Shown: positions 12,926 to 34,099 of the stretch, one piece after another
Numbering within the stretch: the stretch's first letter is position 1
Layout: every line of letters starts with the position of its first letter
Assembly: GCA_964388715.1 (NCBI GenBank)
Contig: CAYMBN010000002.1
Coordinates: 80,704-144,703 of the forward strand
Origin: an uncultured Methanosarcinales archaeon
Lineage (GTDB): Archaea > Nanobdellota > Nanobdellia > Woesearchaeales > CAYMBN01
Direction: 5' to 3'
Length of the DNA: 64,000 nucleotides
Program-made: the position numbers and the translations under genes
The notes under the pieces: generated by a model
What the model was told of the DNA's origin: nothing
The model's database searches: none
The model's input: only the letters and a program-made list of their open reading frames with translations

Positions 12926-13085
12926 TTTTTGTTATTGTTTTTTGAATTAATCCAAAATCATAGAGCTTTTGCTCCATTAGTTCTCTTGCAAGCATTGATT
13001 TCTTTTTACCAATTTTTTTTGAAGTGCTTTCAAGAAGTAGATTAATCTCTTTAGATACAGTAATTCTGATCTGTACATTAGACAT
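12915..13085 (-). CDS. Small ribbon-helix-helix (CopG/Arc-like) DNA-binding protein of about 56 aa, overlapping the start of the 2924-aa gene by 11 nt
   Basis: Its translation is MSNVQIRITVSKEINLLLESTSKKIGKKKSMLARELMEQKLYDFGLIQKTITKNEK. The beta-strand followed by two helices is typical of RHH proteins. A TATA-like tttaaata sits about 25 nt upstream. It is below the ORF-track size cutoff. Confidence 0.5.
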   Translation of the reverse strand: MSNVQIRITVSKEINLLLESTSKKIGKKKSMLARELMEQKLYDFGLIQKTITKNEK

Positions 13086-13160
13086 GTTTATACTTAATAT
13101 TGTATAAATATTTAAATGTTTCGGTAAGAATTATACTTTATTTATGCTAAATAATGTATA

Positions 13161-16100
13161 TTATGTATTATTGAGATAAACATACAATAATTTCTTTTCA
13201 TTTGCTGAGATATTGAATTCTGCTGTGATAAAATCAGTAGGATCAAAAACATTATCAGAATCAAGGTCAGTGAACCAGTGTGTTAGTAATAATCCTTGGC
13301 TAGCTAAAGCTTGTTTTGCATCAACAACTTGTATTTTATTGATTGTAACTGAGTTTAATGTTACTGTTGAATCTGCATCTGTAATATTTTGTCCTGTTAT
13401 GTGTACATGAACATTATTTTGATTAGTTGATGATTCAACAACAAAAGGTATTCTGTATAATTGAGTGTTATTGAACCAGTGCCATGTCATGTTAACTGAA
13501 GTGTTTAAGTAAATTATGTTATAGGAAACATTTGTACTATTACTTAAGTTAAGTCTGCCAGATGCATATACTGTTGCACTTGCTGAGGTAGAGTTTGGAG
13601 ATATTGTTAAGTCAATGCTCATCGGAACTCCTATTGTTATTGTTCTTTGTCCTGTTGAGTTTGTGTTATTAGAAAGATCTTTGGAAAATGCTTTATAAGT
13701 ATATGTGCCATTTGTTAAATTGGTTTGATTTGAGTAGAATTCCCATTTGTCTGTGTCATATTTTTTTAAGTTTGACATATAGGATTGGTTTATTTCAGTA
13801 GGAGATAAACTCCTGTTCCAAATTCTTACTTTGTCAATAATAGCATCAACTTGTCTAGCGGAATAGCCACCTATTTGAGTTATATTGTCTAAAGGTGTAA
13901 GTCCATCTAATTGTCCAGAATCGTTATAGACTGAAACTCCATCAAGGAATGCTGTTGGATCTCCATTACTATCTAATACCATTGCAACATGATGCCAGCC
14001 TGTTCCAATTACAATATTTGTATCTATCCACCGATTAGTTTCATAGAGTAGGATTAAATCATTGCCATTATTGTCATAACTTGAAGAACCTACACCCAAC
14101 CCAAAACCAGTAGCAGCATTTCCAATCTTAATAAAAGCACCACTCTCACTTGCAGAATCAAGATTTACCCATGCTGATGCAGTGAAACTTCCTGTTCCTA
14201 TACCAAAAGTAGATGAAACAGATATTTGGTCATCTACGCCATCAAAGTCAAACCCACTGCCATATTTTCCACTTAAATTATAAACTGCACTAATTACTGT
14301 TCCATTATTTTGATAAATTGAGTTATCAATCGTTGTTTTTGGAGCATTTGAATCATTTTCAAAACGTATTATTGAACCTGAGGATTGAAGATGGGTACTA
14401 TTAGTAAATGAACCATTTCTAAATATGATTTTTCTTACTGTTCCGGAACCATCAGTTATTAATATATTATCTAAGTAAGCAGTGTAGGTTCCTGCAGAAT
14501 CAGCTTCACATACAACATCATAATTCTGGATTGTTTTTCCTACATGTCCTCCAGTAATTTCAATTTTTCTATGATACCATTGATATAGTGCATAAGCAGA
14601 TATATCAGTATTGGGGTGTACATTTAATCCATTTTGATCAAATACGCCTGAATCCCTTAATGTAGCTGCATCTGATGTGGTATAATCAAAAGCTATATCA
14701 TCGTTTGCGCTAGTCCAAAGAACATCATATTCAACATAATCTCCTGATTGGATAACATAGTTTGACACGCTAGTTAAGTCCTCATAATGGTATGAGTTTC
14801 CACTTGTAGACATTGTATAAGTGGCATTAATTGCTTCTACATCAGTAACATTATCAAAGTTCATCATCAACAACAAAGAATCATTATACATTGTGTAATT
14901 AGTACCATTCCAGTTCCATTTGAATTCATTTAAATCAGCTGCATTTGTTAGTGTGATATTTATTTGTACAGATGTGTTTAGTGTTAATGTGTTATTTAGT
15001 GGGGTAGGAAGGTTGAAACTAATTGTTGGAGGTGATGAAGCATCATTGTGTGCTTCTGCTGTTTGACTACCAAATGTAAATTGTAAATCATGTATTCCTG
15101 TTGTTATTACTTTACTTGTTTCATAACTTGTTTGATTACATGAATAATCTTCAATAAATACAGAATTGTTTGTCCAGTTGTAATCCAGAGTTGTGTTATT
15201 ACACCTAACTTCTAAAAATAACAAATCTTCTGTTTCATTTGTATTACTCCAAGTAGTTTGATTGATAGCTTTTATTGTTAAGTTAGCTGTTCCTGTTGTA
15301 TTGAACATTACTGTCCAGTTTTTACCAATTGTTGGATATGATTGTATGTTTAATACAGTTATCTCGACTTCATAGCTAGCATTAGAAAGATGTGGAACTA
15401 TCCATTGTATTTTATCAATAAGACTGTTGTTGTTTTGGTCAACATAAGTTATATTTGTAACTAGTTCTTTTGTGTTATTAACGAGATGGTATAATTTAAT
15501 ATCTTCTTGATTTGTGTCAGTTATGTTTGTGTAAGCTAGAATGTTTTCATAGTGCACATCAGAACTTATGAATATTTGTTTTTTGTATGGATTGATTTCT
15601 GTTTCAATTGCAATAGGCTCTTCTGTGTAATATTCTATATTATATTCTGCTGGTTCATCCTCAATAATTAATTCTGTTGTATTAATATCAATAATAGCGT
15701 GTCCTGTTACTGTGAACTTTCTGAAAAAGTTGATTACCCCATCAATTACAATAGACCAAAATCCTTTATTTTGAACATTTTTGATTGCACTTGCTGTTAT
15801 AACAATAGGATTTATTTGTTTTTTAGTTGGTTTGTTGAATTTTTTGAGTAATTTGTTTTGTTTTTTCAATATATTGTTTTTACTTTTTTCTTCAAACACA
15901 GAAGTTTCTTTTAATATTCCTTTATCCCTTATTTTGAAAGGTAATTGTTTTATATCAGCAGCGCCTAAACCTCTTATAATTTTTCTTGCAGATATATTAA
16001 ATGATTCTGCTGGAAGTTGTGTTGTGTTTGAATCTTCAATTGTTTTTGTCCATTTAACTGGTTTATTGATCTCTGCATAACCTTGGACAGCTTGTTCTTC

Positions 16101-17084
16101 TTCCTCTATTGCAGGAGTTACTTCTTCCTCTTGCTGTGTTTGGTTAAATATGTTTACTCCTGTTAAGTCTGTTAGTGTTTGGTATTGTAAGAAAGCGTCA
16201 AGTGTTATAAAATAATCATCTGATAAATTGTTTTTGTTGTTTGTTACATTAATTGTTACAATGTGTTCTTTATCTTCTAATCCTGTTGCTATTTCTTTAA
16301 CAACACTATAAACAATGTTTTCAGAGTATAAATCAATGTTTTGACTTACATCATCTACAATAATATTTAAAATACCATAATCATAACGTGTTGCAACAAG
16401 TAAATGAAGATTTGTTCCAGTGAATGTAAAATTAATTTGATCATTTTCAAAGTATGAAGTGATAGCTTTACTGTTACTATATCTTTCATCTTCAACTTCA
16501 ACCCAATCATTAATTATATCTTCTGTTTCTTGGAGTATGACAAGAACATTTTGTGGTTCAGAGATTTCTTCTGGTTCTGTTGTTTCATTTGTTTCTATTG
16601 TTTCATTGACTTCAATTGTTTCATTGATTGAAATTGTCTGGTTTGTTTGGTTTATTGAGGTTGTTTGATTTGTTTGGTTAATTGTGGTTTGGTTAGTCTC
16701 ATTAACTAAGATTGTTTCATTGACTAAGATTGTTTGATTTGTTTGATTAATTGTAGTTTGATTTGTCTCATTAATTGTTTGATTGATTTCAATGGTTTCA
16801 TTTAACTCTATTGTTTGATTAGTTTCATTTGTTATTGTTTGGTTTATTTCTATTGTTTCATTAATTTCAGTTGTTTCGTTGACAGTTGTTTCATTTGTTG
16901 ATTCATTATCATAAACAGCAAGTCCAACTGTGGAAGGATTATTAAATAAGATTATACCTAACATTATAACTGCTATTAATGTTACTATTAAAATCTCAAA
17001 TTCTATTTTGTGGTTGTTTTTGTTTTTAGGCATTTTGGTTTTTATTCTTTGCACGATTGTAAACTGTCCAGATTGTCCTATCAT
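13161..17084 (-). CDS. Secreted or membrane-anchored surface protein (1307 aa) with an N-terminal TM or signal, degenerate N-E-T/N-Q-T sequon repeats, a LamG domain and beta-sandwich modules
   Basis: The hydrophobic segment is IEFEILIVTLIAVIMLGIILF. The repeat region reads (NETIEINQTINETNQT)n. The LamG signature is WHHVAMVLD...AIIDKVRIWNRSLSPTEINQSY. The likelier start is Met18 (MPKNK, ATG at about 17033), which leaves a 4-nt gap to the upstream HTH gene. Confidence 0.65.
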   Translation of the reverse strand: MIGQSGQFTIVQRIKTKMPKNKNNHKIEFEILIVTLIAVIMLGIILFNNPSTVGLAVYDNESTNETTVNETTEINETIEINQTITNETNQTIELNETIEINQTINETNQTTINQTNQTILVNETILVNETNQTTINQTNQTTSINQTNQTISINETIEVNETIETNETTEPEEISEPQNVLVILQETEDIINDWVEVEDERYSNSKAITSYFENDQINFTFTGTNLHLLVATRYDYGILNIIVDDVSQNIDLYSENIVYSVVKEIATGLEDKEHIVTINVTNNKNNLSDDYFITLDAFLQYQTLTDLTGVNIFNQTQQEEEVTPAIEEEEQAVQGYAEINKPVKWTKTIEDSNTTQLPAESFNISARKIIRGLGAADIKQLPFKIRDKGILKETSVFEEKSKNNILKKQNKLLKKFNKPTKKQINPIVITASAIKNVQNKGFWSIVIDGVINFFRKFTVTGHAIIDINTTELIIEDEPAEYNIEYYTEEPIAIETEINPYKKQIFISSDVHYENILAYTNITDTNQEDIKLYHLVNNTKELVTNITYVDQNNNSLIDKIQWIVPHLSNASYEVEITVLNIQSYPTIGKNWTVMFNTTGTANLTIKAINQTTWSNTNETEDLLFLEVRCNNTTLDYNWTNNSVFIEDYSCNQTSYETSKVITTGIHDLQFTFGSQTAEAHNDASSPPTISFNLPTPLNNTLTLNTSVQINITLTNAADLNEFKWNWNGTNYTMYNDSLLLMMNFDNVTDVEAINATYTMSTSGNSYHYEDLTSVSNYVIQSGDYVEYDVLWTSANDDIAFDYTTSDAATLRDSGVFDQNGLNVHPNTDISAYALYQWYHRKIEITGGHVGKTIQNYDVVCEADSAGTYTAYLDNILITDGSGTVRKIIFRNGSFTNSTHLQSSGSIIRFENDSNAPKTTIDNSIYQNNGTVISAVYNLSGKYGSGFDFDGVDDQISVSSTFGIGTGSFTASAWVNLDSASESGAFIKIGNAATGFGLGVGSSSYDNNGNDLILLYETNRWIDTNIVIGTGWHHVAMVLDSNGDPTAFLDGVSVYNDSGQLDGLTPLDNITQIGGYSARQVDAIIDKVRIWNRSLSPTEINQSYMSNLKKYDTDKWEFYSNQTNLTNGTYTYKAFSKDLSNNTNSTGQRTITIGVPMSIDLTISPNSTSASATVYASGRLNLSNSTNVSYNIIYLNTSVNMTWHWFNNTQLYRIPFVVESSTNQNNVHVHITGQNITDADSTVTLNSVTINKIQVVDAKQALASQGLLLTHWFTDLDSDNVFDPTDFITAEFNISANEKKLLYVYLNNT

Positions 17085-17454
17085 TTCGATTAACTAAGAC
17101 AGCAATTTCATGATAAGTTAGTTTGAGTTGTTCTTTTAAGAAACGTACAACAACTTCAAAAACAGATAATCTTCTGTCAATAAAGACCTGTAAAGGGATT
17201 TTAATATTTGACTGCTTTATGGGGGATTTAGAACTCTTTTTCCTTTTTTTTAAGGTTCTATTGTATGCAGTCCATATAGTTCTTTGATCCCTGTTGATCA
17301 AGAAAGCTATCTCATGATAAGATAACTTTTTTGTTTCTTTTAAATATTCTACAAGAATTTCTAGGACAGCAAGTTTTCTGTCACAAAATAAAGAAACAGG
17401 GACAAGAATATTAGAATTAATACTGTATGTATTAAAATCCCCTTTTTTGACCAT
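17026..17454 (-). CDS. Tandem-duplicated sigma70-region-4-like HTH DNA-binding protein (142 aa)
   Basis: It has two copies of the motif (I/L)P(L/V)..F.DR.LS..E..V.(F/Y)LKE..KL(S/T)YHEIA.L.NR.DRTIWT.YNRA.K. This aligns to sigma-70 region 4 (LSxRErxVlxLRf...TlEEiA...vtRERIRQIExKA). It is tightly coupled to the downstream 1307-aa gene. Confidence 0.5.
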   Translation of the reverse strand: MVKKGDFNTYSINSNILVPVSLFCDRKLAVLEILVEYLKETKKLSYHEIAFLINRDQRTIWTAYNRTLKKRKKSSKSPIKQSNIKIPLQVFIDRRLSVFEVVVRFLKEQLKLTYHEIAVLVNRNDRTIWTVYNRAKNKNQNA

Positions 17455-17546
17455 TAGTTAATACTTACGATGTAGGTATATATAAATCTTTTGTTTTTAG
17501 ACTACAAAGGATTATGTTTACTTACAATGTAAGAATTATTTAATAA

Positions 17547-18497
17547 TTATTTTTTCCTTTTTTTTCTTTTCTTCTTTACTTTACTTCCTTCATTTTTTCT
17601 TCTGAATAATTTTATTAAAAGTATTAACACACTGCTTATGATAATAACATATAATGTGTTGCTTACAATAGATTTAATCTGCCCACAATCAATGTCTTGG
17701 TAAAACATACAATCTGGGTCACATTTATTATCTCTTATTTGATCACAGAAACCATCAGCTGTTCCAGATACACAATCTTGTGGACAATTTTTGCTATTTT
17801 CTTCTTTGTCACAAATACTATCTGAGTTACATGTTTCATTGAGTTCAATTATAACTGGTTTTTCTGCAACATGTAGTTCTACCATTTTTGTTACATCTCT
17901 GTGTCCTGTTTTTGTTGCAGTAACTTCTAAAGTATATGTGCCTTTCTGTGCAAGGTCAACTTTGGCTGGTAAATTTACTTTTTGCATGTAATCATCTGGG
18001 AAAATTACGTTTACATGGGATTCTGTGTCAGATGCTCCTGTGTCAAAATCAAGGAATACTGATTCGTCTCTTACAAAAACATTTTTATCACACTCTTCTT
18101 GGTTACATAACATATCTGGAATTTCTAATGCAGGTTCAACATTTATAAGGAATTGTTTTTTTATGATCTTTTTTTCTGGTTTAATAATTTGTAATATTGC
18201 AGTACAAACTTGTCTTTCAAATGTTTCGTCAATCATAAGCCATGAGTATGTGTCACTATATTTTTTACCTGGTTCTAGGCGTATTGTTAATTGATCAATA
18301 AATTTGTCTGGTGCTTCTGGACAAGATATAATTGTAAAATAAGAAAGCATAACTTCTTTAGTTGATTCAACTGTATAATCAAACTTAACTTTTTCATCTA
18401 ATTTAAATGAATCTTTTATGCTTATATCTGAAGTTAGTTCTGCATTAACAAGATTAATTAACATAATTGCAAGGATTAGGTAAATCAATTTCTTCAC
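17547..18497 (-). CDS. Type-I membrane protein (316 aa) with signal peptide, extracellular domain, Cys-rich module, C-terminal TM helix and basic tail
   Basis: The signal peptide is MKKLIYLILAIMLINLVNA and the Cys-rich module is CDKEENSKNCPQDCVSG..CD.I..NKCDPDC. The C-terminus reads LYVIIISSVLILLIKLF followed by RRKNEGSKVKKKRKKRKK. Confidence 0.5.
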   Translation of the reverse strand: MKKLIYLILAIMLINLVNAELTSDISIKDSFKLDEKVKFDYTVESTKEVMLSYFTIISCPEAPDKFIDQLTIRLEPGKKYSDTYSWLMIDETFERQVCTAILQIIKPEKKIIKKQFLINVEPALEIPDMLCNQEECDKNVFVRDESVFLDFDTGASDTESHVNVIFPDDYMQKVNLPAKVDLAQKGTYTLEVTATKTGHRDVTKMVELHVAEKPVIIELNETCNSDSICDKEENSKNCPQDCVSGTADGFCDQIRDNKCDPDCMFYQDIDCGQIKSIVSNTLYVIIISSVLILLIKLFRRKNEGSKVKKKRKKRKK

Positions 18498-23400: not shown

Positions 23401-24310
23401 TGGTTATATTATTGTAATAAATATTACCACTATGGGAATCATATTCATTAAAAACTATACCTGAACCGTCCCAGCTAAATGTTGCTTCGCCGTCTGGGTC
23501 AGGTGCGCAATTAAATATTGTATTATCTTTTACAGTAATATTTATTACTTCTTGTAGTTCTATTCCTCTTATAGAATTCCATATTACATTATTTGAGATT
23601 ATAGAATCATTTATTTCATAAATTTCAATTGCAGAGTCTGTTGTACTATCTGAAAGAGTGTTATTTTCTATATGTACACTATCTAAAGGACCATCAAGAT
23701 CTATAAGAGGATTACCTGGACCTGTAAATGTGTTATTTCTTATAACTATATCCTTATTATCTAAACCATAACCTGCTTCAGTAATCATAAGACCATTGCT
23801 ACAGTTAACAAATGAATTATTTTGGATTAATAAATTTGTTATTCCAGTTGCATAAACTGATCTAAAACCAGCAGCATTACCACCATTAACATTACAACCC
23901 TGAATAGTTATGTTTGTTAATAATTGAGTAAATGAATTTTCATAGATTCGTATTACGTCTCCACCAGAAGGACCAGCATTACTTATTGTATTTCCTTTAC
24001 AATCTAGTGTAACATCACTGGAATTAATAAAAATACAATAGGCAGAATTCATAGTTATTCCAGTACTTAAATTATAAATTCCTGGTGTAGTGATTTCAGT
24101 ATCACATGCAGTTATCTCTGTTTCAGCTATGCCAACAGCCATTCCTGTTATTTTTGGTGTTGTAGTTATTGCAGTATAAAACATAGTAGATAATAAGAGG
24201 ACTGCGATAGTTGCAATTATGTTATGTTCTAATTTAATGATATGTGCTCTATCTAAATGATGTTTTCTTTTTCTCATTCCCTTTTTTGATTTAATGCTTT
24301 TTCTTTGCAT
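20483..24310 (-). CDS. Membrane-anchored adhesin-like protein (1275 aa) with an N-terminal signal-anchor, right-handed parallel beta-helix (PbH1/pectin-lyase-fold) repeats, four Ig/PKD-like repeats, an acidic Glu-rich linker and a C-terminal domain
   Basis: Beta-helix repeat motifs (IRNNTFTG, IENNTLSD, ISNNVIWN, KDNTIFN) are present. A repeated roughly 95-aa unit reads P.SG..FNYTVTYTDANN..P..I.V.ID...Y.M...D..D..Y..GK.Y.Y...L....H.Y.F.ASDG. The linker is G7SS followed by EEEEEEEPIEEEEEPVEEEEPEE. Confidence 0.6.
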   Translation of the reverse strand: MQRKSIKSKKGMRKRKHHLDRAHIIKLEHNIIATIAVLLLSTMFYTAITTTPKITGMAVGIAETEITACDTEITTPGIYNLSTGITMNSAYCIFINSSDVTLDCKGNTISNAGPSGGDVIRIYENSFTQLLTNITIQGCNVNGGNAAGFRSVYATGITNLLIQNNSFVNCSNGLMITEAGYGLDNKDIVIRNNTFTGPGNPLIDLDGPLDSVHIENNTLSDSTTDSAIEIYEINDSIISNNVIWNSIRGIELQEVINITVKDNTIFNCAPDPDGEATFSWDGSGIVFNEYDSHSGNIYYNNITSCTYGMGIGQSIRDIQIYHNNIYGNTLQIRTEQAGGNVRGVNISNGSQGNYWGHAACPYFTGGGAQDSDTWVAIDSFPYDQPYASGSWPAPPASCGSQPEVTDNVGSPNVNTGNVQPTSGNQFTSYVFTATYTDDDDDAPTSMNVIINTTGTVAMVQRDPTDTTYTDGKDYLYNTTLAIGNHSYNFSTSDGTYSVVAMGDNAVGIEVVGQVEPTLASGSVSPTSGPINTVFNYTVTYTDANNIGPNGSIQVVIDDNPYSMTECDPGDAMFNDGKNYYYTTNSTTLSTVGSHSYYFNASDGTNITTTSTTNLPIIVNSAPTYSSAGVSPTSGTTSTNFNYTVTYTDANNEAPDTINVTIDGTMYPMAEIDATDTTYSNGKGYYYNQTLTAAAHTYSFTASDGTDTSSSASTSGPSVPYCGDSTCNGAETCTSCQADCGACPTEETPTTTSSGGGGGGGSSIAGHVVNTQEVSEDQESEIQEEEEEEEPIEEEEEPVEEEEPEENETILFAPDEERPTLIFSVPDDIELYQEFEAKVFIGNAKSLTDLEFSINYDSNYLTLTEVEKSGFLQDFNFDYTINEAETQDLISSLKSILTKTNSEVSITADQQTEEIISGSGYLATIKFKPINPGTMLLNFDDIQFSNTSSTDIEVITEEIEIEVIGNVSENMKNIEAYTEKELFLISDDNWQKIFTFISATIWTQNNQINKYPFLIYHKNGNIIDLDSTISFINDYNPTRITLIEDSSEDFDTLLASATSISTDKIQKISLNNYFTYWESFGDIVYVNSDYELAMTASVYASLKNIPLVIKDSITDNENIFTQKNVITINTQCPQTSTSCQDISSLTQLQQEIIEITGTDKVILINQKDIGFTIQEDYLPLKTSSTIKNLYSSTSLSAPILAAAKHEIIIFTNVDQTQQTKICEKNLKTREHFELVIQDIENNINTLFNTNPKYLTILGSPIAIPDSDFEMCVGETT

Positions 24311-27300
24311 TTTTTCTTATTTTTTTATTGTGTTTTTTATGTTTCCTTTTCTTGTTTCTTTTTTTTGGTTTTTTTTGAAAAGTTTTTAACTTTTCTAAAC
24401 CTTTCTTTGAAAGTTTCTTTTTTGTTTTGTGTTTATGTTTCTTTTTTTTGGAAACTTTGGTTTTTTGAGAATGTTTTTTGTGTTTGTTTTTCTTCTGTTT
24501 TTTTGATTTCTTCTTCTTCTTTTTCTTGGTTGTTTTTCCTTTGGATAATTCTATTGTTAGGTAAGTTAAAACTATGATTGATGTGATAATTAAAGTCCAG
24601 ATAGAAGGTTTTTCAGGTGAAGTAAAAACACTTAGTAACATTGCTTCTAGATCAAGTTTTTCAAATTCTTCTTCCTCTTCTTCTAGAGTTTCTTCTTCTA
24701 TTTCTTCTTCAGGAAGAGCTGTTTGATTTTCTTCAGCTTCTTTTTCAATAATTTTTGTTGTGGCAATTGCAAAATAACTGAATCCAGGAGTTGTTGCTTT
24801 GTATATGGTATAATTATTGTTTTCAGAAATTATTTTTGTAGGAAGATTATTCCATTTACTGTTTTTGTATCTTTTTAATACAATGTCTGTTTTATTTACT
24901 TTATTTTTTTCTAGCCATTCTTTTGAAACTTTGAATTGAATTTCTGCATTTTCTATTACACCATCTACTAAATTTTTGGTTCTACTTACTTGGGCATATT
25001 TGTAAACAAGAGTTTTTATTTTTCTACGTGTTTCAGGTGCTTGTGTTAACTCTATAACACTGATTTGTACATTTTTTAATTTATTCTTGGTTGTAGCTTC
25101 TAATTTTGTGATTGGAATTTCTTCTTTGTCAGGGGACATTTCTAATGTGTCACTAGCTTTGATTGACGTCCAAAGTTGAGTTGACTTTTCTCCTTTAATT
25201 GTTGGTTCTTCTATGACAAAACCATCTCCGCTGCTTGATGAACTTGATGATGATGTTGATGTTGAAGTTGATGTACTTCCTGCAACATCTGTTGTGTAAT
25301 TTGTTGAGTTTGAGTATGTCATTACGTTACTATTTTTATCAGAACATCTTACAAATAAGGTTCCTGTGTTGTCTGTTGTGAAGCTGAAATTAGTAGTATG
25401 GCTAAGGGTTCCTGTTGTTGAAAATGCTGTCATATTACCATAATATAGGTTTGAAGTGTTATAAGCGCAATTTGCATGTTCATTTGTTGTTACATTTAAT
25501 ATTAATATGACTGTTGATGTGCCTGTTCCTGATGCTGTGTAATTTAGATCTGTTATTATTGGGATTGTTCCATCTTTGATTGAAAAGTTTCTTGGAGAAC
25601 TAATAGAGCTTCTTTGGTTTTGATCAGTACAATTTAATGTGTAGTTATAAGTTCCGTTGAGGAGATCACTGTAGTTATGCATGTGTGTATAACGTACCCC
25701 TACATTAGTAAAGTTTGTTGTATTTATTGTTCCTGATTGAACATTGCCTGTTGCGTTTGTTATATTATATCTGCAGAAGGTTGTGTTTGGATTTGCTTCC
25801 CATACATCTGCAGAAACTTGAACGAAACTATCTGCTGATTGGTTTGTATTATTTGTTGGTCCTGTTATGTTTATTGTTGGTGCAACTGTATCATTTGCTA
25901 AGCCTGCTCCTGATAAATGCGGTACGTAAGTTGTTACATTTAATGAACCGTTTGTGTAACATGCTGCTGTTATATTGCCAACAGTGCTTGGAGCTGTGTT
26001 GCCTGTACATTGAGCTAACTTGTAAACATTGTGACCAAGGTCATCGTCTACATACATTACTTCAAAGTCTTTTAATGTTTCGTTAAATACAATTGTTGTT
26101 GTATTATAATAAGTATCATTTAGGAAACTGCTCATGTTTTGGAATAAAACTAATTTTGTGAAGTTTGTTCCTGATTTGTTTTTGCTTAAGTTTGCTGGTA
26201 GAGAATGTTTACTTACAACAATTGTAAAGTCTGTTCTGTTCCAGTTTGCTAACGATGAGTTGAAGCTTGGCATTGTTACAGAATAGTTGTCTGTTGTTGA
26301 TGCGTTAACTTCAAATTCCATACTTACTGAATTATTCATCCAAGCAACACCACTTAGTTCTGTACCTGATGAGTTTTTGATAGAAACGTTTACAACTCCT
26401 GTATTTCCTGTTTCAATTGAGTTAGCTCTTTCTGTTATGTTTTCTTGTCCTATTACTCTAAATGTTCTTGATACTTGGGTTGCTAAGTTACTTGCTTCAT
26501 CTTTTACATTAAATACTACTGTGTGTGTTCCTCCACTAATATTATAAATTGTAATGTTAGTTGCATTTGCTGTTGTGGTAAGTACCCATTGACCAGAGTC
26601 TACTGAGAAGTTTGATAAAGAAATGTTTGCTTCTGTTACACTATAATTAAATGTTACATTTCCATTTGCATTTGTTATTATTTGATTGTTTGTTGGAAGT
26701 GTTACATTAATTATTGGAGCATCATCATCTATTGTGAAAGTGATTCCTGGACTTGTTATTGATGTGGTATTAGTGTTGTTTGCAGTGTCAACAACTGTTA
26801 TATTAAGCACTTGATCTGAGCCTAGAGTAATTGTTCCATTCCAGGTAGAGTTAATAGATTTATTTAATGTTGTTCCTTCTACAACTACTGTGGTTATACT
26901 TGTTTTTAGGTCTGTTGCATTTACTGTTGCTATAACTGCAGTTGATGTTTGTACATAACGGTCTGAGATAGTAAAATTAAAGATTGGAGGAGTGTTTTCA
27001 ATTATAAATGTATAATTAGTACTATTGAATGCACTGTTTCCTGCATTATCATAAGCAAGACAGTTCCAGATAAAAGTACCATTTTTCAGTATGTCTAATG
27101 TTCGGTTTGTTGAGTTGCTTGTACCTGTTATGGTTGCAGTATAGTTTAGTGCCCATGATCCTGTTGAGTTTGTGTAAAAGCTTACATTAGTCAAGTTTTT
27201 ATTATCAGTGAGACTACAATTTAAGTTTACAGAATAATTTGAAGTATTATAATTGTTTACAGGGCTTGTTAGTCTTACTATTGGTGCTGTTTGATCTACG

Positions 27301-30300
27301 TCAACAGTAATGTTGTAAGTTGTACTTGCTCCTATGTTTCCTGCATTATCAGAACAGTTAACAGACCAGTTGTAATCTGCATTAGCTAATGATTGAATAA
27401 AGGTTAAATTAGCTATTGATTTATTAATGCTGCTGTTGGTTTGATTAACTGAATTATTAATTATTAAACTGCAATTGTCAATATTTAAACCATCTGTTAC
27501 ATTGTAGAAGAATTTTATGTTTCTGTTTGAAGTATTTTTGGTGTTGTTTGTAGGTCTTATTAAAGTAACTGTTGGTGCTGTGGTTTCAACAGTCAATGTG
27601 TAATTACTACTGCTCCAGTTTCCTTCACTATTTTGGTCATAAGCAAGACAACCCCATTTGTATGTGCCAACTGTTAGTGCACTTATTGTGATATTGGTTG
27701 AGTTACTGGTACCTGTTACATTTCCAGTGGCATTTAATAACCATGACCCTGTTGTGTTGGTGTAGAAACTTATGTTAGTTAAGTTAGTATTATCGGTTGA
27801 AGTACAGTTAAATGAAATAGATGTTTGAGATGTGTTGTAGTTGTTAACAGGACTTGTTAGATTTACTGTTGGTGGAGTGTTTGTTACATTAACAGTAAGA
27901 TTGTATATATCACTGTTATCTACATTACCAGCAAAGTCTGTACAATTGACAGACCAGTTATGTATTCCATTTGGAAGAGTTTGACTAAATGGAATACTAC
28001 TTACTGCTTTGTTGATTGTAGTATTAGTTACATTTATTGTTTTGTTTAAAATTAAAGTACAATTTTTTATACTTGATAATGCGTCTGTTACATTGAAATA
28101 AAAGTTAATGCTTTGACTAGTGGTATTAAGTGTATTGTTTGGAGGTGTTACTAGAGTTACTGTTGGGTTTGCTCTGTCAAATGTTATTGTTTTATTTGAA
28201 TTGTTCCATGCACTGTTTGAATTACTATCAACGCACAGAACATTCCAAATAAATCTTCCTTGTGGGAGGTTATTAAGTGTTATGTTTGTTAAAGCACTTT
28301 TTGTAGGGCTACTAACTGTTTTGTTTAGTTGCCAAGTACCTGTGAAATTAGTATATAAACTACAATTACTTACTGTTCCATCATCTGTTACAGTTAAATT
28401 AAATTCAAGAGAAGTTACTGTTGTGTTGAAATTATTTTCAGGATAGTTAAGTACTACAACTGGTGATGAAACAGGATATATTTGTTCTGTTGACCATGTA
28501 CTTGCTTTTAGGCTAGAGTCAATTGTTTGAACTGCCCAATAATATGTTTGGTTACTTATATTCAATAAAATGTTTGTGTTGTTTAGCATGTTACCAAACA
28601 TACCTTGTGGTGGGGAGTTGCTTGTGCCATATTCACCACTGACAATATTATTTGCACCTGAGGAATTTCCCACTCTTAGGTTATAATATAATGTTCCGCC
28701 TTGTGTATCAGAAGCGCCTGACCATGATAAGTTAAGTCCTGTGGTATGGTTGCTGCTAAATGTGATTGGTGCATTAGGAATATTATTGTCTGATGTTATT
28801 GGATTAATATAAATTGTTGAATTATCACGAACTTGGTCTCCAACTAAAATTAAATCAAGATTATTATCTCCATCTAGGTCTGTTAATAATCCTGATCCTT
28901 TTTGTACTGTACCACTTGAGCCTGAAGTTGGTAAAATTTTTCCTGATATATTATCTTGGATAAATCTTGAACCTGTGTTGTTGTAAAGAAGTACACTATC
29001 AGCAGTAGTGCCCCCTGGTACAAGTACTAAATCAACTTTACCATTATTATTATAATCTCCTGGATAGATTGCAAGTTCTCCAGTTGCTGTGAGGTCTGTT
29101 ATCCAACTAGAATTATAATAGAAACTTGTTTTGTTGTTAAAGTATATATCTAATCCATAACTTCCACTGAATTGTCCTGAAACAGCTAAGTCCATCCAAC
29201 CATCATTATTAAAATCAGCTACTGCTGAGAATGGGTGTGTGTTACCTGATTGGTATAATCTTAAACCAAATGAATAAGTTGTGTTAAGTTTGAATTCTGT
29301 TTTATTATTTGTATAAACTTGGGCTGTAGTAGTAGTTATTATAACTAGGTCAAGGTAGTCATCATTGTTAATATCAATCAAATGGGCTGTACCATCTGTG
29401 GTTCTTGTTAAATTATTTTGCCATGGAAGACTTTCACTAAAGGTTGTTCCATTGTTTGTGTAAACTTTTGATGAACTATTACTATTATTTTCTTGTCCTA
29501 TTATTACTAAGTCAATGTCACCATCAAGGTCAATGTCTCCTTGTACAATTGCTGCGTCTTTTACTTGTGTTATATTTTCTTGCCAAGTAAAGTTTTCTTT
29601 GAATGTTGTTCCATTGTTTATGTATATTTTTGTACTTGAACCTCTACCATCATCACCTGCAATAATTATATCTGTATCATTATCATTATCAAAATCTCCT
29701 AATGCAATAGAAGGTGTAGTAACATTGGTTATATTTTCGTTCCATGTTGTGTTTTTATTGAATGTATTACCATTACTTGCATATACATTAGCAAGTGGAG
29801 CAGTTCCATTGTCTCCTAGAATTATGAGGTCAAAGTTTCCATCTTTTAAAAAGTCTCCAACTGCAATTGCAGGTGTTTGTACACCAAGTAAGTTAGCATG
29901 CCATGATGCATTTGTTGAAAAAGCTTCTATGATGCTTGATGAAAGATTTAAGAAACTAATGTTGTTAGAACCATTACAAGTTACATTAATGCCAGCATAG
30001 AATGTACCTGTACTTGAATCGCTTACATTTAATTTGAATGTTGTTTTAGAGTAAGGACTAACACCTTGGATAGATGATACATTTGTTGTTAAATTATCTA
30101 AACTGTGATAATTAGTTAAAGTGATAGTCATATTGTCACTTGATGCTTGGCTGTTGATTATATCAATATAATAATTACCTGTTGTGTTAACTCCAACATA
30201 ACCATGGAAAGTAGAATCATTAAATCTTCCTGAGCCTCTTGAAGTGCTTAATGATAAACTTATCCCTGCTGTTATTGATGTTGATCTTATTGGTAAATAA

Positions 30301-33300
30301 TCTATAAATTCTTCTCCACCTCCACCACCTACACTTTCTTCAGATGAATTGTAAATATTATCACAAATTCCGTTAGCATTTGCATCATAACAACCTTCAA
30401 TTGGTGTATCTTTAGCAGTCCATCTGTTACCATAATTAGAATTGTTAAAAGTGAGGTTGTTTGCATTTTGTGTTCCTGTAAATGAACCAGAACTAACAAA
30501 AGTGTTTCCTGTGAATACAGTGCCATTGGATACTCCGTCTGGACCCATGTTAAAGTTAAAATCTATTTGACTTCCTGAGTTATCTACATTGTTGAATGTG
30601 TTATTATAAAAGAAGTTGTCATGTGAACCATCAAATCGAACTCCTCTTACTTGATTTTTGCTTATATTTGAATGGTTAAATGTGTTGTTATGAGATCTTA
30701 ATAGATAAATTCCTTGGTCAGTGTTATTGATTATGGTTAGGTTGCTCAAGAAGCTTAGGTTTGTACCATTTAGGTAAACACCTATTGTAAAGTTTGAGAT
30801 TGTACAATTTTCAATTGTGATATTTTTTCTTCCACTTATATTGATACCATAAAAATATCCGCCACTACTTGAACTAGTACCATTACCTGTTAAATTATAT
30901 CCTTGGCAGTCTAATCTTATGTTATCAGCTGAGATATGGAAACATGTTGAAGCGTTTGTAACATTTTGTGTTAATTTATAATTTCCACCTGCTGTGTTTA
31001 AATTTTGACAATTATTGATGTTAGTACTAGTATCAAATTCATAGGTTTGTTCTGCTGACCATGCACTTCTTTTTAAACTAGAATCAATTGTTTGGACAGC
31101 CCAATAATATGTTCTATCACTTTGATTTAATAGAACTTGGGTATTGTTATGCATGTTACCATACATACCTTGTGAAGGGGAGTTACCTGTTCCATATTCA
31201 CTAGATATAATATCATTTCCACCTGAAGCTGTTCCTACTCTAATATTATAATATAGTGTTCCTCCTTGTGTATCAGAAGCACCTGACCATGATAAGTTAA
31301 GTCCTGTAGTGACATTATAATTAAATACAGAAGGTGCTGTTGGTGCATTATTGCTGGATATTCTGTTATTAGTATAAACTTTTGAAACTGCTCCAGAATC
31401 ATCTCCAGCTATGATTAAATCAAGATCATTATTACCATTAATATCAACAAGTAATGGTGATCCTTTTTGTATTCCCATTCCACCTACACCAGTATTGCTT
31501 GGCAAAAATTTTGCATATGTTGTGTCAGAAGTGAAAACCTTTCCAGTGTTATTGTATACAAGAACACTTTCCCCAGTATTACCTGAAGATACAAGTATTA
31601 AATCAATTTTACCATCATTATTATAATCTCCAGGATAGATTGCTACTTCTCCACTTGTTGAGAAACCTGTTACCCAACTTGAATTATAATAAAAACTTGT
31701 TTTGTTATTAAAATATACATCTAATCCAAAGCTTCCGCTAACTTGTCCTGATACTACAATATCCATCCATCCATCATTGTTAAAGTCAGCTGATGCCATA
31801 TATGGATGATCATTACCTGATTGATAAAATCTTAAACCATTTGAGTAGGTTGTGTTAAATAAGAATGCTGTTTTGTTGTTTGTGTAAACTTGTGTTATTG
31901 TTGTTGTTATTATAACCAGGTCAAGGTAATCATCATTGTTAATGTCAATTAATTGGGCAGTACCATCTGAAGATCTTGTTAAGTTTTCTTCCCATGAAGA
32001 GTTTTCATTAAAGGTTGTTCCATTGTTTATGTAAACTTTGGATGAATCATTGCTATTGTTTTCTTGCCCTATTATTACTAAGTCAACATCACCGTCTAGG
32101 TCAATGTCACCTTGTACAATTGCTGCATTTTGTACTGGTGTGATATTTTGTTGCCATGATAAATTTTCATTAAAGCTTGTTCCATTGTTTATGTATATTC
32201 TTGTGCTTGCACTACTAGTATTGAAACCAGCAATAATCATGTCTGTATCATTGTCATTGTCAAAGTCTGCTAGTGCAATGCTTGGGGTAGAAACATTGAT
32301 TAGGTTTTGGCTCCATGTTGTATTTTTGTTTAATGTTGTTCCATCACTTGTATAAATATTCATAAGAGGATTACTACTACCATCATCTCCAACAATAATT
32401 ACATCAGGATTTCCATCTTTTAGGAAGTCAGCAGATCCAATTGCAGGTGTTTCTGCAGCAACTAAATTAGTTTGCCAGGTTGAACTTGCAGCGAAAGCTT
32501 CAATAACACTTGTTGAAAGATTTAAGAAACTAATGTTGTTAGAGCCATTACAAGTGGCATTAATACCTACAAAATATGTGCCATTGGTTGAGTCACTTAC
32601 ATTTAATTTAAATGTTATTCTTGAATAAGCACCAACATTCATAAATCCTGTTTGGTTTGCTGTTAAAGTGTTTAAACTATTGTAGTTTGTTAAAGTGATA
32701 GTTACATTGTCAGTTGATGCTTGGTTGTGAATTACATCAATATCATAAGTACCATTATCATTAATTGCAACATAACCATGGAAATTAGTATCATTATATT
32801 GTCCTGTTCCATTAGATGTACTTAAGGATACTGTTATTCCTGCTGCAATTGACTGTGATCTTATTGGAAGATAATCAATAAATTCACTGTCTCCACCTCC
32901 ACCACCTCCGCTTGCAACAGTGGAATTGTAAATCTCATCACAGATTCCATCAACATTTGTATCATAACAAGTTTCAGCAGGAGTGTCTTTAGCAGTCCAT
33001 CTATTACCATAATTAGAATTATTAAAGGAAGCATTATTTGCGTTTTGCATACCATTAAAGCCAGTTGCATCAGTAAAAATGTTACCTGTAAATACAGTAC
33101 CATTTGATTTACCACTTGAACCCATATTAAAGTTTATATCAATTTGATTTCCATTATTGCCATTGTAAAATGTATTATTGTAAAAGAAATTATAATGTGC
33201 TCCATCAAAGTAAACTCCTCTTGCTGAATTATAACTTATATTTGAATGATTGAATGTGTTGTTGTTTGATCTTAATAAATAAATTCCTTGGTCAGTGTTG

Positions 33301-33686
33301 TTAAATATAGTTAAGTTACTAAAGAAACTTAGATTTGTATCATTTAAGTAAATTCCTCTTGTGTAATTGGTTATTGTACAATTTCTAACAGTAATATTTT
33401 TTCTTTTGGTAATGTTGATACCATAGAAATATCCTTGATTGCTTGTGCTAGTACCATTGCCTGTCATAGTATATCCTTGACAATCTAGAATAATATTGTC
33501 TGCTCTAATATCAATACATGTTGCACTACTGTTTACATTTTGTGTTAAAGCATAGCTTCCACCTGATGTGCTTAGATTTGTACATGCATTTATATTGATA
33601 GCATAAGCAAATGAATTATAAAGTAGGAAGACAAAAATTAAAATAATCAAACTCTTCAAATTTGTTTGAATTTTGTTTTTAACCAT
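24291..33686 (-). CDS. Giant surface protein (3131 aa) with signal peptide, two copies of a beta-helix (NosD/PbH1-like) + FG-GAP/VCBS propeller + FN3-like unit, Ig-like repeats, a Ser/Thr stretch, a PGF-like motif, a C-terminal TM helix and a roughly 90-aa Lys/His-rich tail
   Basis: The beta-helix N-terminus (ININACTNLSTSGGSYALTQNV...CIDIRADNIILDCQGYTMTG) is duplicated as STNINNCQNLNTAGGNYKLTQNV.... FG-GAP motifs (DFDNDNDTDMIIAG, DIDLDGDVDLVII) are present. The C-terminus reads TTPGFSYFAIATT ... SIWTLIITSIIVLTYLTIELS followed by K-rich sequence. Confidence 0.65.
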   Translation of the reverse strand: MVKNKIQTNLKSLIILIFVFLLYNSFAYAININACTNLSTSGGSYALTQNVNSSATCIDIRADNIILDCQGYTMTGNGTSTSNQGYFYGINITKRKNITVRNCTITNYTRGIYLNDTNLSFFSNLTIFNNTDQGIYLLRSNNNTFNHSNISYNSARGVYFDGAHYNFFYNNTFYNGNNGNQIDINFNMGSSGKSNGTVFTGNIFTDATGFNGMQNANNASFNNSNYGNRWTAKDTPAETCYDTNVDGICDEIYNSTVASGGGGGGDSEFIDYLPIRSQSIAAGITVSLSTSNGTGQYNDTNFHGYVAINDNGTYDIDVIHNQASTDNVTITLTNYNSLNTLTANQTGFMNVGAYSRITFKLNVSDSTNGTYFVGINATCNGSNNISFLNLSTSVIEAFAASSTWQTNLVAAETPAIGSADFLKDGNPDVIIVGDDGSSNPLMNIYTSDGTTLNKNTTWSQNLINVSTPSIALADFDNDNDTDMIIAGFNTSSASTRIYINNGTSFNENLSWQQNITPVQNAAIVQGDIDLDGDVDLVIIGQENNSNDSSKVYINNGTTFNENSSWEENLTRSSDGTAQLIDINNDDYLDLVIITTTITQVYTNNKTAFLFNTTYSNGLRFYQSGNDHPYMASADFNNDGWMDIVVSGQVSGSFGLDVYFNNKTSFYYNSSWVTGFSTSGEVAIYPGDYNNDGKIDLILVSSGNTGESVLVYNNTGKVFTSDTTYAKFLPSNTGVGGMGIQKGSPLLVDINGNNDLDLIIAGDDSGAVSKVYTNNRISSNNAPTAPSVFNYNVTTGLNLSWSGASDTQGGTLYYNIRVGTASGGNDIISSEYGTGNSPSQGMYGNMHNNTQVLLNQSDRTYYWAVQTIDSSLKRSAWSAEQTYEFDTSTNINNCQNLNTAGGNYKLTQNVTNASTCFHISADNIRLDCQGYNLTGNGTSSSSGGYFYGINISGRKNITIENCTISNFTIGVYLNGTNLSFLSNLTIINNTDQGIYLLRSHNNTFNHSNISKNQVRGVRFDGSHDNFFYNNTFNNVDNSGSQIDFNFNMGPDGVSNGTVFTGNTFVSSGSFTGTQNANNLTFNNSNYGNRWTAKDTPIEGCYDANANGICDNIYNSSEESVGGGGGEEFIDYLPIRSTSITAGISLSLSTSRGSGRFNDSTFHGYVGVNTTGNYYIDIINSQASSDNMTITLTNYHSLDNLTTNVSSIQGVSPYSKTTFKLNVSDSSTGTFYAGINVTCNGSNNISFLNLSSSIIEAFSTNASWHANLLGVQTPAIAVGDFLKDGNFDLIILGDNGTAPLANVYASNGNTFNKNTTWNENITNVTTPSIALGDFDNDNDTDIIIAGDDGRGSSTKIYINNGTTFKENFTWQENITQVKDAAIVQGDIDLDGDIDLVIIGQENNSNSSSKVYTNNGTTFSESLPWQNNLTRTTDGTAHLIDINNDDYLDLVIITTTTAQVYTNNKTEFKLNTTYSFGLRLYQSGNTHPFSAVADFNNDGWMDLAVSGQFSGSYGLDIYFNNKTSFYYNSSWITDLTATGELAIYPGDYNNNGKVDLVLVPGGTTADSVLLYNNTGSRFIQDNISGKILPTSGSSGTVQKGSGLLTDLDGDNNLDLILVGDQVRDNSTIYINPITSDNNIPNAPITFSSNHTTGLNLSWSGASDTQGGTLYYNLRVGNSSGANNIVSGEYGTSNSPPQGMFGNMLNNTNILLNISNQTYYWAVQTIDSSLKASTWSTEQIYPVSSPVVVLNYPENNFNTTVTSLEFNLTVTDDGTVSNCSLYTNFTGTWQLNKTVSSPTKSALTNITLNNLPQGRFIWNVLCVDSNSNSAWNNSNKTITFDRANPTVTLVTPPNNTLNTTSQSINFYFNVTDALSSIKNCTLILNKTINVTNTTINKAVSSIPFSQTLPNGIHNWSVNCTDFAGNVDNSDIYNLTVNVTNTPPTVNLTSPVNNYNTSQTSISFNCTSTDNTNLTNISFYTNTTGSWLLNATGNVTGTSNSTNITISALTVGTYKWGCLAYDQNSEGNWSSSNYTLTVETTAPTVTLIRPTNNTKNTSNRNIKFFYNVTDGLNIDNCSLIINNSVNQTNSSINKSIANLTFIQSLANADYNWSVNCSDNAGNIGASTTYNITVDVDQTAPIVRLTSPVNNYNTSNYSVNLNCSLTDNKNLTNVSFYTNSTGSWALNYTATITGTSNSTNRTLDILKNGTFIWNCLAYDNAGNSAFNSTNYTFIIENTPPIFNFTISDRYVQTSTAVIATVNATDLKTSITTVVVEGTTLNKSINSTWNGTITLGSDQVLNITVVDTANNTNTTSITSPGITFTIDDDAPIINVTLPTNNQIITNANGNVTFNYSVTEANISLSNFSVDSGQWVLTTTANATNITIYNISGGTHTVVFNVKDEASNLATQVSRTFRVIGQENITERANSIETGNTGVVNVSIKNSSGTELSGVAWMNNSVSMEFEVNASTTDNYSVTMPSFNSSLANWNRTDFTIVVSKHSLPANLSKNKSGTNFTKLVLFQNMSSFLNDTYYNTTTIVFNETLKDFEVMYVDDDLGHNVYKLAQCTGNTAPSTVGNITAACYTNGSLNVTTYVPHLSGAGLANDTVAPTINITGPTNNTNQSADSFVQVSADVWEANPNTTFCRYNITNATGNVQSGTINTTNFTNVGVRYTHMHNYSDLLNGTYNYTLNCTDQNQRSSISSPRNFSIKDGTIPIITDLNYTASGTGTSTVILILNVTTNEHANCAYNTSNLYYGNMTAFSTTGTLSHTTNFSFTTDNTGTLFVRCSDKNSNVMTYSNSTNYTTDVAGSTSTSTSTSSSSSSSSGDGFVIEEPTIKGEKSTQLWTSIKASDTLEMSPDKEEIPITKLEATTKNKLKNVQISVIELTQAPETRRKIKTLVYKYAQVSRTKNLVDGVIENAEIQFKVSKEWLEKNKVNKTDIVLKRYKNSKWNNLPTKIISENNNYTIYKATTPGFSYFAIATTKIIEKEAEENQTALPEEEIEEETLEEEEEEFEKLDLEAMLLSVFTSPEKPSIWTLIITSIIVLTYLTIELSKGKTTKKKKKKKSKKQKKNKHKKHSQKTKVSKKKKHKHKTKKKLSKKGLEKLKTFQKKPKKRNKKRKHKKHNKKIRKNAKKKH

Positions 33687-33924
33687 TTTTTTTCTTTACC
33701 CTATTATAAACTGTCCAGATGTTTCGTTCATCTCGATCAAGGACTAGAGCAATTTCATTATAGCTTAGTTTTTCTTCTTCTCTTAGATATTTTACAATTG
33801 CTTCAAGAGCAGTAAGATTGTTGCCACGAAAGATGTAAGTAGGAAGGGTTAGTTTGGAAATAAGATTAAGAAAATCTTTACTAATAGTCACTCTTTTTTT
33901 CTTATAATAGCTGTTTTTTCCCAA
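33679..33924 (-). CDS. Small sigma70-region-4-like HTH DNA-binding protein (81 aa), paralogous to the 17026..17454 gene
   Basis: It reads TLPTYIFRGNNLTALEAIVKYLREEEKLSYNEIALVLDRDERNIWTVYNRVKKK. Its stop overlaps the 3131-aa gene start by 8 nt (AATGGTTAA). Confidence 0.5.
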   Translation of the reverse strand: MGKNSYYKKKRVTISKDFLNLISKLTLPTYIFRGNNLTALEAIVKYLREEEKLSYNEIALVLDRDERNIWTVYNRVKKKNG

Positions 33925-34099
33925 TTTAATAGTAATAATATGTGTGTATATTATTTATAAATGTTTCGGTTTTTTATGATTTTTTACATTTTTTACACAT
34001 TTTTTAACGTTTTTTAGGTATATTTTGTTGGAAATTTTAGCTTAGAATGGATTTTTTATACATACAGAAGATGTTATTGGTTGATAAAAGAAGAAAAGG

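Follow-up and report, generated by a model that had tools for sequence, protein, structure and literature searches.

The window, a stretch of 64,000 nucleotides from contig CAYMBN010000002.1 of an uncultured archaeon, encodes two small helix-turn-helix (HTH) proteins, each of which precedes the gene for a very large surface protein: HTH142, a 142-residue chain with two HTH repeats, and HTH81, an 81-residue chain with one. Here we describe their fold, the family to which they belong, and a 17-bp palindrome that occurs twice in front of the HTH142 gene, and we argue that HTH142 is probably a regulator of its own transcription unit. Both open reading frames (ORFs) lie where an earlier note on this DNA had placed them, and its count of two repeats and one was borne out: the halves of HTH142 are 54% identical over 61 residues in a self-alignment (E = 9e-26), and alignment of HTH81 with either half gives 45-49% identity (E about 1e-15). 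No further copy was found in the 64-kb window; a tblastn match at its left edge (positions 1-51), taken at first as a third paralogue, is spurious. The HTH142 stop codon overlaps the ATG of the next gene, at 17033, by 8 nt (ATGCCTAA, 17033-17026), and the HTH81 stop codon overlaps the ATG at 33686, also by 8 nt (ATGGTTAA, 33686-33679). Each HTH gene has a B recognition element (BRE)/TATA box of its own, so the note was right to put both genes at operon heads in front of giant surface proteins, one of 1290 residues with a LamG domain and one of 3131 residues with FG-GAP repeats. Coordinates are collected in Table 1.

Table 1. Features at the two HTH loci, in window positions
Feature	Position	Strand	Basis
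HTH142 gene, 142-residue tandem double-HTH protein	17026..17454	-	ORF, internal repeat, 482 homologues, AlphaFold2 model
HTH142 repeat 1, residues 17-73; short strand and four helices; recognition helix NRDQRTIWTAYNRTLKK	17236..17406	-	Alignment, AlphaFold2, superposition on sigma region 4
HTH142 repeat 2, residues 85-140; fold as repeat 1; recognition helix NRNDRTIWTVYNRAKNK	17035..17202	-	Alignment, AlphaFold2, superposition
Promoter-proximal operator (predicted), TACCTACATCGTAAGTA on the gene strand; adjoins the TATA box, ends 7 nt before the ATG	17462..17478	.	Position weight matrix 22.2 bits; 13-mer
HTH142 BRE/TATA, CAAAAGATTTATATA	17479..17493	-	Fits the general consensus CGAAAC-TTTAWAWA
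Distal operator (predicted), TACTTACAATGTAAGAA, after a second TATA-like run, TTAAATAA	17519..17535	.	Position weight matrix 21.6 bits; 13-mer
1290-residue membrane-anchored LamG surface protein gene, downstream of HTH142	13161..17033	-	Laminin_G_3, E = 4.5e-17; N-terminal anchor in translation
316-residue surface protein gene, upstream of HTH142; product ends in a transmembrane segment and RRKNEGSKVKKKRKKRKK (KKKRKKRKK)	17547..18497	-	Translation
HTH81 gene, 81-residue single-HTH protein, TTG start; recognition helix DRDERNIWTVYNRVKKK (N-type)	33679..33924	-	ORF, AlphaFold2
HTH81 weak candidate operator, TACACACATATTATTAC, 5 nt after the TATA box; left half-site alone conserved	33932..33948	-	Modal position of the family; no position weight matrix match
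HTH81 BRE/TATA, CGAAACATTTATAAA	33954..33968	-	Zero mismatches to the promoter consensus
3131-residue FG-GAP/VCBS giant surface protein gene, downstream of HTH81	24291..33686	-	FG-GAP_3, E = 8.8e-44

The Pfam model that best fits both proteins is Sigma70_r4_2, which scores 23.9 bits on HTH142 and 17.5 bits on HTH81 against a gathering score of 25.7; NCBIfam gave weak matches only, to the C-termini of extracytoplasmic function (ECF) sigma factors. In an alignment of 37 homologues (A1), 35 of the proteins match Sigma70_r4_2 at E ≤ 1e-3, the best at 4.9e-13. GerE/HTH_LuxR, which the note had also mentioned, is not among the families matched by the window proteins at E ≤ 10, nor among the matches listed for the 37 members (the first 25 of 26 families). 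With A1 as input, AlphaFold2 gave a model of HTH142 with a predicted local distance difference test score (pLDDT) of 90.4 and a predicted template modeling score (pTM) of 0.83, in which a short strand and then four helices make up each repeat; the pTM, being high, implies a defined arrangement of the two repeats relative to each other. A Foldseek search of the PDB with single repeats identified region 4 of SigW (6jhe; target-normalized template modeling score, 0.86; 26% identity) and of SigR (5fgm; root mean square deviation, 2.1 Å), as well as SigD, SigE, and SigC, all sigma matches being at a probability of 0.97 to 1.0. No PDB chain analogous to the two-repeat arrangement was found with the whole chain (query-normalized score ≤0.37), and a library of viral structures returned weak matches to phage sigma factors only. 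The resemblance to sigma-70 region 4 that the note had read from a motif thus holds at the level of the fold. Two other matches were discarded: a BTB_2 match on HTH142, which exceeds its cut-off at 24.2 bits, covers the linker between the repeats, occurs in 3 of the 37 members, and conflicts with an all-helical HTH model, and matches to ribosomal eL24 in a profile search against PDB sequences are due to chance.

Could HTH142 be a genuine alternative sigma factor of bacterial origin? Among Pfam and NCBIfam models it matches sigma-70 region 4 and ECF sigma C-termini best, and a 2021 survey of DPANN archaea (Castelle et al.) reported that "sigma factors" of the sigma-70 type are prevalent among Woesearchaeota, noted no anti-sigma partner for them, and left their mechanism open (PMC8204110). 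The fam00359 "sigma factors" of that survey are probably the present family, noted through the same Pfam similarity. Two copies of region 4 fill the 142 residues, however, and the modeled chain stops directly after the second HTH; neither Sigma70_r2 nor Sigma70_r3 matches HTH142 or HTH81 at E ≤ 10 or occurs among the 37 members, so that nothing is left to bind core RNA polymerase (RNAP) or a -10 element. The host, moreover, is an archaeon with BRE/TATA promoters of the TBP/TFB type, and the target described below, a 17-bp palindrome that coincides with the TATA box or lies downstream of it, is no -35 hexamer. The sigma-factor reading is effectively refuted by this domain content, and we give it almost no credence: the fold is sigma-4-like, yet the protein is not a sigma factor.

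The palindrome emerged when upstream regions from the genome loci of the family were aligned at the start codon, where at least two copies were seen. Its family consensus is TACTTACA-N-TGTAAGTA, 17 bp in all, with half-site centers about 10 bp apart; it takes the form tACTTACA(A/T)TGTAAGTa in close relatives and tACTTACATAATAAGTa in more distant ones. A 17-column position weight matrix (PWM) was built from 63 seed instances, in which the columns left unconstrained by the seed are 88-92% conserved, and was used to scan 72 loci (1.05 Mb). The 170 matches include 115 in the 250 nt and 145 in the 500 nt that precede an HTH start, a density of 6.4 per kb compared with 0.053 per kb elsewhere (∼120-fold enrichment); shuffled DNA gave 11 matches. 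At least one site is present in 47 of the 72 loci and at least two in 38. The sites keep a fixed relation to the core promoter: 40 begin 3-7 nt after a TATA 8-mer (mode, 5-6), and in 21 of the 47 loci a gap of 0-7 nt separates the proximal site from the start codon, which implies leaderless or near-leaderless mRNAs.

In the window the PWM has exactly two matches, both in the 92-bp spacer upstream of HTH142, and the 13-mer CTTACRATGTARG likewise occurs exactly twice in the 64 kb, both times in this spacer; the palindromes to which the note had pointed, at 17465-17533, are therefore real. In the distal copy the core CTTACA-A-TGTAAG is perfectly palindromic. On its own, the half-site TACTTAC shows no enrichment in the window (10 copies, with 9.4 expected). 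The BRE/TATA boxes have a different standing. Promoters throughout the window share the consensus (C/A)GAAA(C/G)-TTTAWAWA, with 14 matches where 5.1 are expected (for example at 13109, 33954, 39304, 51728, and 56275), which leaves the palindrome as the gene-specific element. The sequence CGAAAC-TTTAWAWA, common to the promoter of HTH81 and that of a ribbon-helix-helix-like gene described below, was considered as a specific site and rejected, being the general BRE/TATA consensus of the organism.

Tandem arrays of the site were also seen. At one locus (L003; compare L001:2746-2782 and L008) seven operator copies lie in a 53-bp tandem repeat within a 1.1-kb spacer, and about nine more sites occupy a 900-bp spacer preceding an HTH gene that heads an ORF of 15,135 codons. 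Arrays of 6-9 sites at a regular spacing of 41-56 bp, in L003, L023, and L026, one of them outside any HTH promoter, are what a centromere- or iteron-like system would look like, in which the protein would coat repeat arrays for the segregation or replication control of a chromosome or plasmid. No ParA/ParB, Rep, or Orc genes adjoin the loci inspected, however, and most loci, the window included, have just 2-3 sites locked to the core promoter; we regard this explanation as very improbable.

Operator bases co-vary with residues of the recognition helices, in two correspondences. The first concerns position 7 of the half-site and the Arg in the motif YN-R-A. Where both repeats carry it, 14 of 16 loci have symmetric sites, with C at position 7 and G at position 11; where N, K, H, or S takes its place in repeat 1, 26 of 29 loci have asymmetric sites (Fisher P = 4e-7 against the Arg class). 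Relative to the gene, the orientation of asymmetric sites is fixed, by 20 to 2. The second concerns position 4 of the half-site and the residue that distinguishes R-T-IW (T-type) from R-N-IW (N-type) recognition helices. Proteins with T-type helices only go with TACTTAC half-sites (T/T in 53 of 71 sites) and those with N-type helices only with TACATAC on both sides (A/A in 26 of 28), as do single-repeat N-type proteins (A/A in 21 of 23). One helix of each type goes with a hybrid site whose left half is TACATAC and whose right half is TACTTAN (31 of 36), and never with the reverse. Further subfamilies pair R-N-I-W-H helices with ...AACGTA and S-D-K-T-V-S-T helices with ...GTAGGA. HTH142 obeys the pattern, its two T-type repeats, each with Arg, being accompanied by T/T sites with C...G. 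Since these patterns are otherwise hard to explain, each repeat appears to read one half-site.

A word-indexed search returned 482 homologues of HTH142, mostly of 126-200 residues with two repeats, and all named sources among them are Woesearchaeota or Nanoarchaeota; an exhaustive profile search returned 2188 clusters (at 50% identity) at E ≤ 1e-3 and 1990 at E ≤ 1e-10. A scan of GTDB species representatives gave 272 relatives, the best 80 of which were used for the locus counts that follow; all 80 have DPANN names or come from DPANN-looking genomes. Every named member thus being DPANN, the family is lineage-specific, as the note had supposed. Many of the relatives' contigs (L004, L013, L018, L020, L027, L031, L034, L046, and others; binchicken third-party annotation assemblies), including a single contig of 969 kb, are titled "uncultured Methanosarcinales archaeon," a label that is probably wrong for these DPANN-type contigs.

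Coupling to the next gene is a property of the family. In 68 of the 80 loci an ORF on the same strand starts within -40 to +30 nt of the HTH stop codon, with overlaps mostly of 4, 8, 17, or 20 nt. The downstream ORF reaches 800 codons or more in 32 of the 80, compared with 3.3% of background ORFs (P = 2.5e-26); many run past the 10-kb flank, and one has 15,135 codons. An N-terminal hydrophobic segment is predicted in 58 of 67 coupled and 48 of 60 downstream products, compared with 42% of background ORFs. Single-repeat HTH genes from metagenomes are coupled in the same way as the double-HTH genes. Most upstream and downstream neighbors at the related loci have no Pfam domains.

The number of repeats varies. 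Standalone proteins with four HTHs exist (about 300-370 residues), and at L084:3179-3564 two adjacent single-repeat N-type genes, of 57 and 69 codons, take the place of one double-HTH gene, a split or not-yet-fused state of the tandem architecture. Among the 37 proteins of A1, identity between the two repeats of a chain ranges from 42 to 85% (mean, 66%), compared with 63% and 60% when the same repeat, first or second, is compared between proteins; judged from these sequences, the likeness within a chain suggests co-evolution of the halves, concerted evolution, or repeated re-duplication.

Several of these features could also be those of a mobile-element remnant, a bipartite HTH of the transposase or recombinase type whose palindromes would be terminal repeats or recombination sites that vary the surface cassettes. 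The transposase-type models HTH_23 and HTH_38 match 31 and 14 of the 37 members, the bipartite domain of Tc3 (1u78) is second in the Foldseek ranking, automatic names at the Joint Genome Institute (JGI) include "transposase," and several cassettes occur per genome. Against this, neither the protein nor its examined neighbors contain a DDE or a serine/tyrosine recombinase domain; the sites are fixed relative to TATA boxes and start codons, at promoters rather than flanking a unit; and the family is conserved in synteny, for example beside TopoVI in L001, L003, and L008. We consider a mobile-element origin of these features highly unlikely.

We propose instead that HTH142 is a sequence-specific, operator-binding autoregulator of the unit formed by its own gene and the surface-protein gene, acting as a single-chain pseudo-dimer, and hold this to be the probable explanation. 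Each sigma-region-4-like repeat would read half of the 17-bp operator, and HTH142 very likely binds the palindrome. The note's suggestion that a chain with two HTHs could occupy an inverted repeat as a pseudo-dimer thus has strong, if indirect, support from the operator and the residue-to-base co-variation. Because the HTH142 gene overlaps the next start by 8 nt, binding would autoregulate the HTH gene together with the surface-protein gene, and it is likely that HTH142 regulates its own operon. The proximal operator, beside the TATA box, would cover the expected transcription start; the distal operator, 57 bp upstream and behind the second TATA-like run, could add cooperativity or activation. 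In general, archaeal factors whose site coincides with the TATA box or lies downstream of it block recruitment of TBP/TFB or RNAP, and those that bind upstream of the BRE can activate (MDR1, LrpA, Phr, and Ptr2 are examples). Given this general behavior, the position of the proximal site suggests negative autoregulation, and the likeliest effect, judged from the operator positions, would be negative feedback by occlusion of TBP, TFB, or RNAP. By analogy with these factors the net effect of HTH142 may be repression, a call that we regard as evenly balanced.

Several observations weigh against the proposal that HTH142 is an operator-binding autoregulator. On the protein side, HTH142 and HTH81 both fall under the Pfam gathering score for Sigma70_r4_2, the small size of the domain makes for weak Foldseek E-values, and a profile search against PDB sequences was marginal (SigH, 3mzy; E = 0.069). 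On the DNA side, the PWM was derived from the same upstream regions that were later scanned, the controls being the unconstrained flanking positions and the remainder of each locus; about a third of the loci have no site within 600 nt, the HTH gene there being internal to an operon; the proximal site of the window lies at a gap of 0 from the TATA box, compared with the usual 5-6 nt in the family; and a seven-site array with no HTH gene nearby lies at L003:4310-4700, between a DnaG-like gene and a RIO1-KH-TopoVI operon. The co-variation statistics carry no phylogenetic correction, and few clades may underlie the classes. Finally, a complete N-type operator for HTH81 was not found in its own promoter or anywhere in the 64-kb window, and the HTH81 relatives in L083-L085 are likewise without a full operator.

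This last point bears on how the two window proteins are related. The note had taken them as paralogues, and they are homologous; HTH81, however, belongs to the other specificity class (R-N-IW) and has no complete operator at its promoter, so its role there is less certain than that of HTH142. Its AlphaFold2 model (pLDDT 81.7) has the helices of the HTH142 repeats and an additional N-terminal helix, and a contig in the JGI collection holds a 98%-identical copy in the same synteny. The site predicted for HTH81 from its recognition helix is TACATACAATGTATGTA (TACATAC-N3-GTATGTA), which would be bound by a pair of repeats; as a single repeat, HTH81 would need a second repeat as partner in order to bind. 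The best N-type match in the window, at 34059-34075, scores 9.3 bits and has one perfect half-site. Directly 5' of the HTH81 BRE/TATA, on the minus strand at 33971-34013, lie five A6 tracts (CCTAAAAAA, CGTTAAAAAA, TGTGTAAAAAA, TGTAAAAAA, and TCATAAAAAA) phased with a period of ∼10-11 bp, which suggests intrinsically bent DNA. The 3131-residue product ends, after a transmembrane segment, in a polybasic cytoplasmic tail of ∼100 residues that is nearly pure Lys, His, and Arg (KKKKKKKSKKQKKNKHKKH..., encoded at 24291-24600), with no HTH.

In some relatives the HTH is part of the surface protein itself. In-frame fusions, found in at least 13 representative clusters, consist of an extracellular region, a transmembrane or hydrophobic segment, a K/R-rich run, and one or two double-HTH units at the C-terminus; the fused proteins have 655-5919 residues and also show an N-terminal coiled coil with a transmembrane segment. 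One locus on a genome contig (L054, 2763..9104) contains a complete fused ORF of 2113 codons with four matching operators of the hybrid type, the last of which ends at the start codon, and L059, L071, and L078 contain similar fused ORFs. Fused giants of 2,000-5,900 residues, with matching operators at their own promoter, include those at L054:2604-9104 and L059:3678-10369 and the proteins P0138, P0149, and P0164. The 316-residue protein encoded upstream of HTH142 ends in a transmembrane segment and RRKNEGSKVKKKRKKRKK, the junction that precedes the HTH in the fused homologues, so the window looks like a split version of the fused architecture.

The fusions suggest another role for the HTH, as a membrane-to-DNA tether or feedback module. 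It would then be primarily the cytoplasmic tail of a giant protein, holding the promoter at the membrane or reporting that the giant is complete or engaged, and the free-standing genes of the window would be split versions that cooperate with the polybasic tails of neighboring surface proteins. The fusions in at least 13 clusters, up to 5919 residues in length, the complete fused ORFs on genome contigs, with four matching operators in L054, and the KKKRKKRKK end of the 316-residue protein just upstream of HTH142 are all in its favor. The window HTH proteins, however, have no transmembrane segment and do have promoters of their own; ordinary transcriptional control would account just as well for the placing of the operators at the TATA box; and the fusions could simply be membrane-tethered regulators of the ToxR type. 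We think the primary role as a tail unlikely, and the cooperation of split versions with polybasic tails no less so. Tethering, a sigma factor, a transposase remnant, and an iteron or centromere system are all much less likely than an operator-binding autoregulator.

An extension of the autoregulator proposal that accommodates the fusions is a self-contained feedback circuit. Each giant gene would carry its own promoter-specific module, either fused behind the transmembrane segment or split off as a small overlapping gene; we offer this tentatively. It is possible, though doubtful, that the two-position residue-to-base correspondence insulates paralogous cassettes from one another, and that the cell counts or senses the completion or engagement of individual giants, which would be the signal for the response, and adjusts that gene.

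Other parts of the window are in keeping with its archaeal origin. It encodes archaeal TopoVI A and B, LonB, NurA/HerA, a DnaG-type Toprim protein, ELP3, and Tyw1, and has a G+C content of ∼31%; no tRNA genes or Rfam families were found in it. A further small gene stands before a giant ORF. This ORF of 56 codons (MSNVQIRITVSKEINLLLESTSKK..., 12915-13085, minus strand) overlaps by 11 nt the start of a LamG-type giant ORF of 2924 codons (4151-12925, minus strand), has a BRE/TATA of its own (13109-13123), and by eye has a strand-helix-helix pattern resembling a ribbon-helix-helix protein; it has no Pfam match even at E ≤ 10, and may be an unrelated small DNA binder that likewise serves as a "front gene." In its promoter, at the place after the TATA box where operators usually lie, is ATATTAAGTA, which matches the right half of the hybrid operators. 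The 2924-residue product contains long internal duplications, including two identical copies of a segment of more than 300 residues (VTDVWVNTSGDTMTGNLTMGDNYILNSTSIKG...LamG...).

In making contact with their hosts, DPANN archaea are thought to rely on giant surface proteins, and to our knowledge nothing is known of how these costly genes are controlled. The regulator and operator described here form a pair that is directly testable, comprising one protein, one 17-bp site, and two predicted specificity residues, and found again in hundreds of genomes. With the help of the residue-to-base correspondences, regulons could be predicted for uncultured organisms from their genomes, and the "sigma factors" of Woesearchaeota can be recast as ordinary operator-binding regulators derived from a duplicated sigma-4 module. 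In the fusions a giant surface protein bears a DNA-binding module that matches its own promoter, an unexpected architecture; if the feedback circuit is true, it would make the fused giant adhesin its own membrane-tethered transcription factor.

An HTH regulator that binds an operator is of a known kind; it is the build and the context that are unusual here, and literature searches turned up neither the tandem architecture nor the operator, nor any account of the residue-to-base correspondences, of the coupling to giant genes, or of the fusions. The closest structural relative is ECF sigma region 4 (Sigma70_r4_2; SigW 6jhe, SigE 2h27, and SigR 5fgm), likewise a small helical HTH whose recognition helix reads a short DNA element, and with a similar signature, L-S/T-Y-x-E-I-A ... 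T-V/I ... R-A-x-K-K. Unlike ECF factors, the present family has no sigma-2 or sigma-3 region, has one or two copies of the module per chain, resides in an archaeal host with TBP and TFB, and has as its site a 17-bp palindrome beside the TATA box.

The note had read isolated region-4 HTH modules in an archaeon as a lineage-specific transcription-factor family. The family is indeed lineage-specific, but region-4-like HTH regulators were already known in archaea: in Tfx/EnfR (MTH0916; TON_1525) the HTH resembles sigma-70 region 4, and EnfR binds a pseudo-palindrome overlapping the promoter of the cluster that it represses (PMC10570040). Tfx has one HTH plus a C-terminal α+β domain that is acidic, and forms X-shaped homodimers on a 36-bp site. 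In the present family, by contrast, the symmetry comes from internal duplication, membership is restricted to DPANN among named sequences, and the genes are tied to giant surface genes; neither TFX_C nor any other C-terminal domain was found in Pfam scans of the window proteins and the 37 members.

The fused members resemble ToxR, CadC, and TcpP in that a cytoplasmic DNA-binding domain is joined through one transmembrane segment to an extracytoplasmic part, and the window proteins correspond to the unfused form. They differ in that the HTH is C-terminal, is present in 2-4 copies, and belongs to a surface protein of 2,000-6,000 residues whose own promoter contains the operators. As for the use of two HTH units in one chain, MarA and Rob of the AraC family, the bipartite domains of Tc3 and paired proteins, and Myb R2R3 likewise place two units in adjacent major grooves, so that a monomer covers a site of ∼17-20 bp. 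In those proteins the units are dissimilar and the sites asymmetric, whereas in the family described here the repeats are alike, and the ancestral-looking class has a truly palindromic site, asymmetry arising only where one repeat has diverged.

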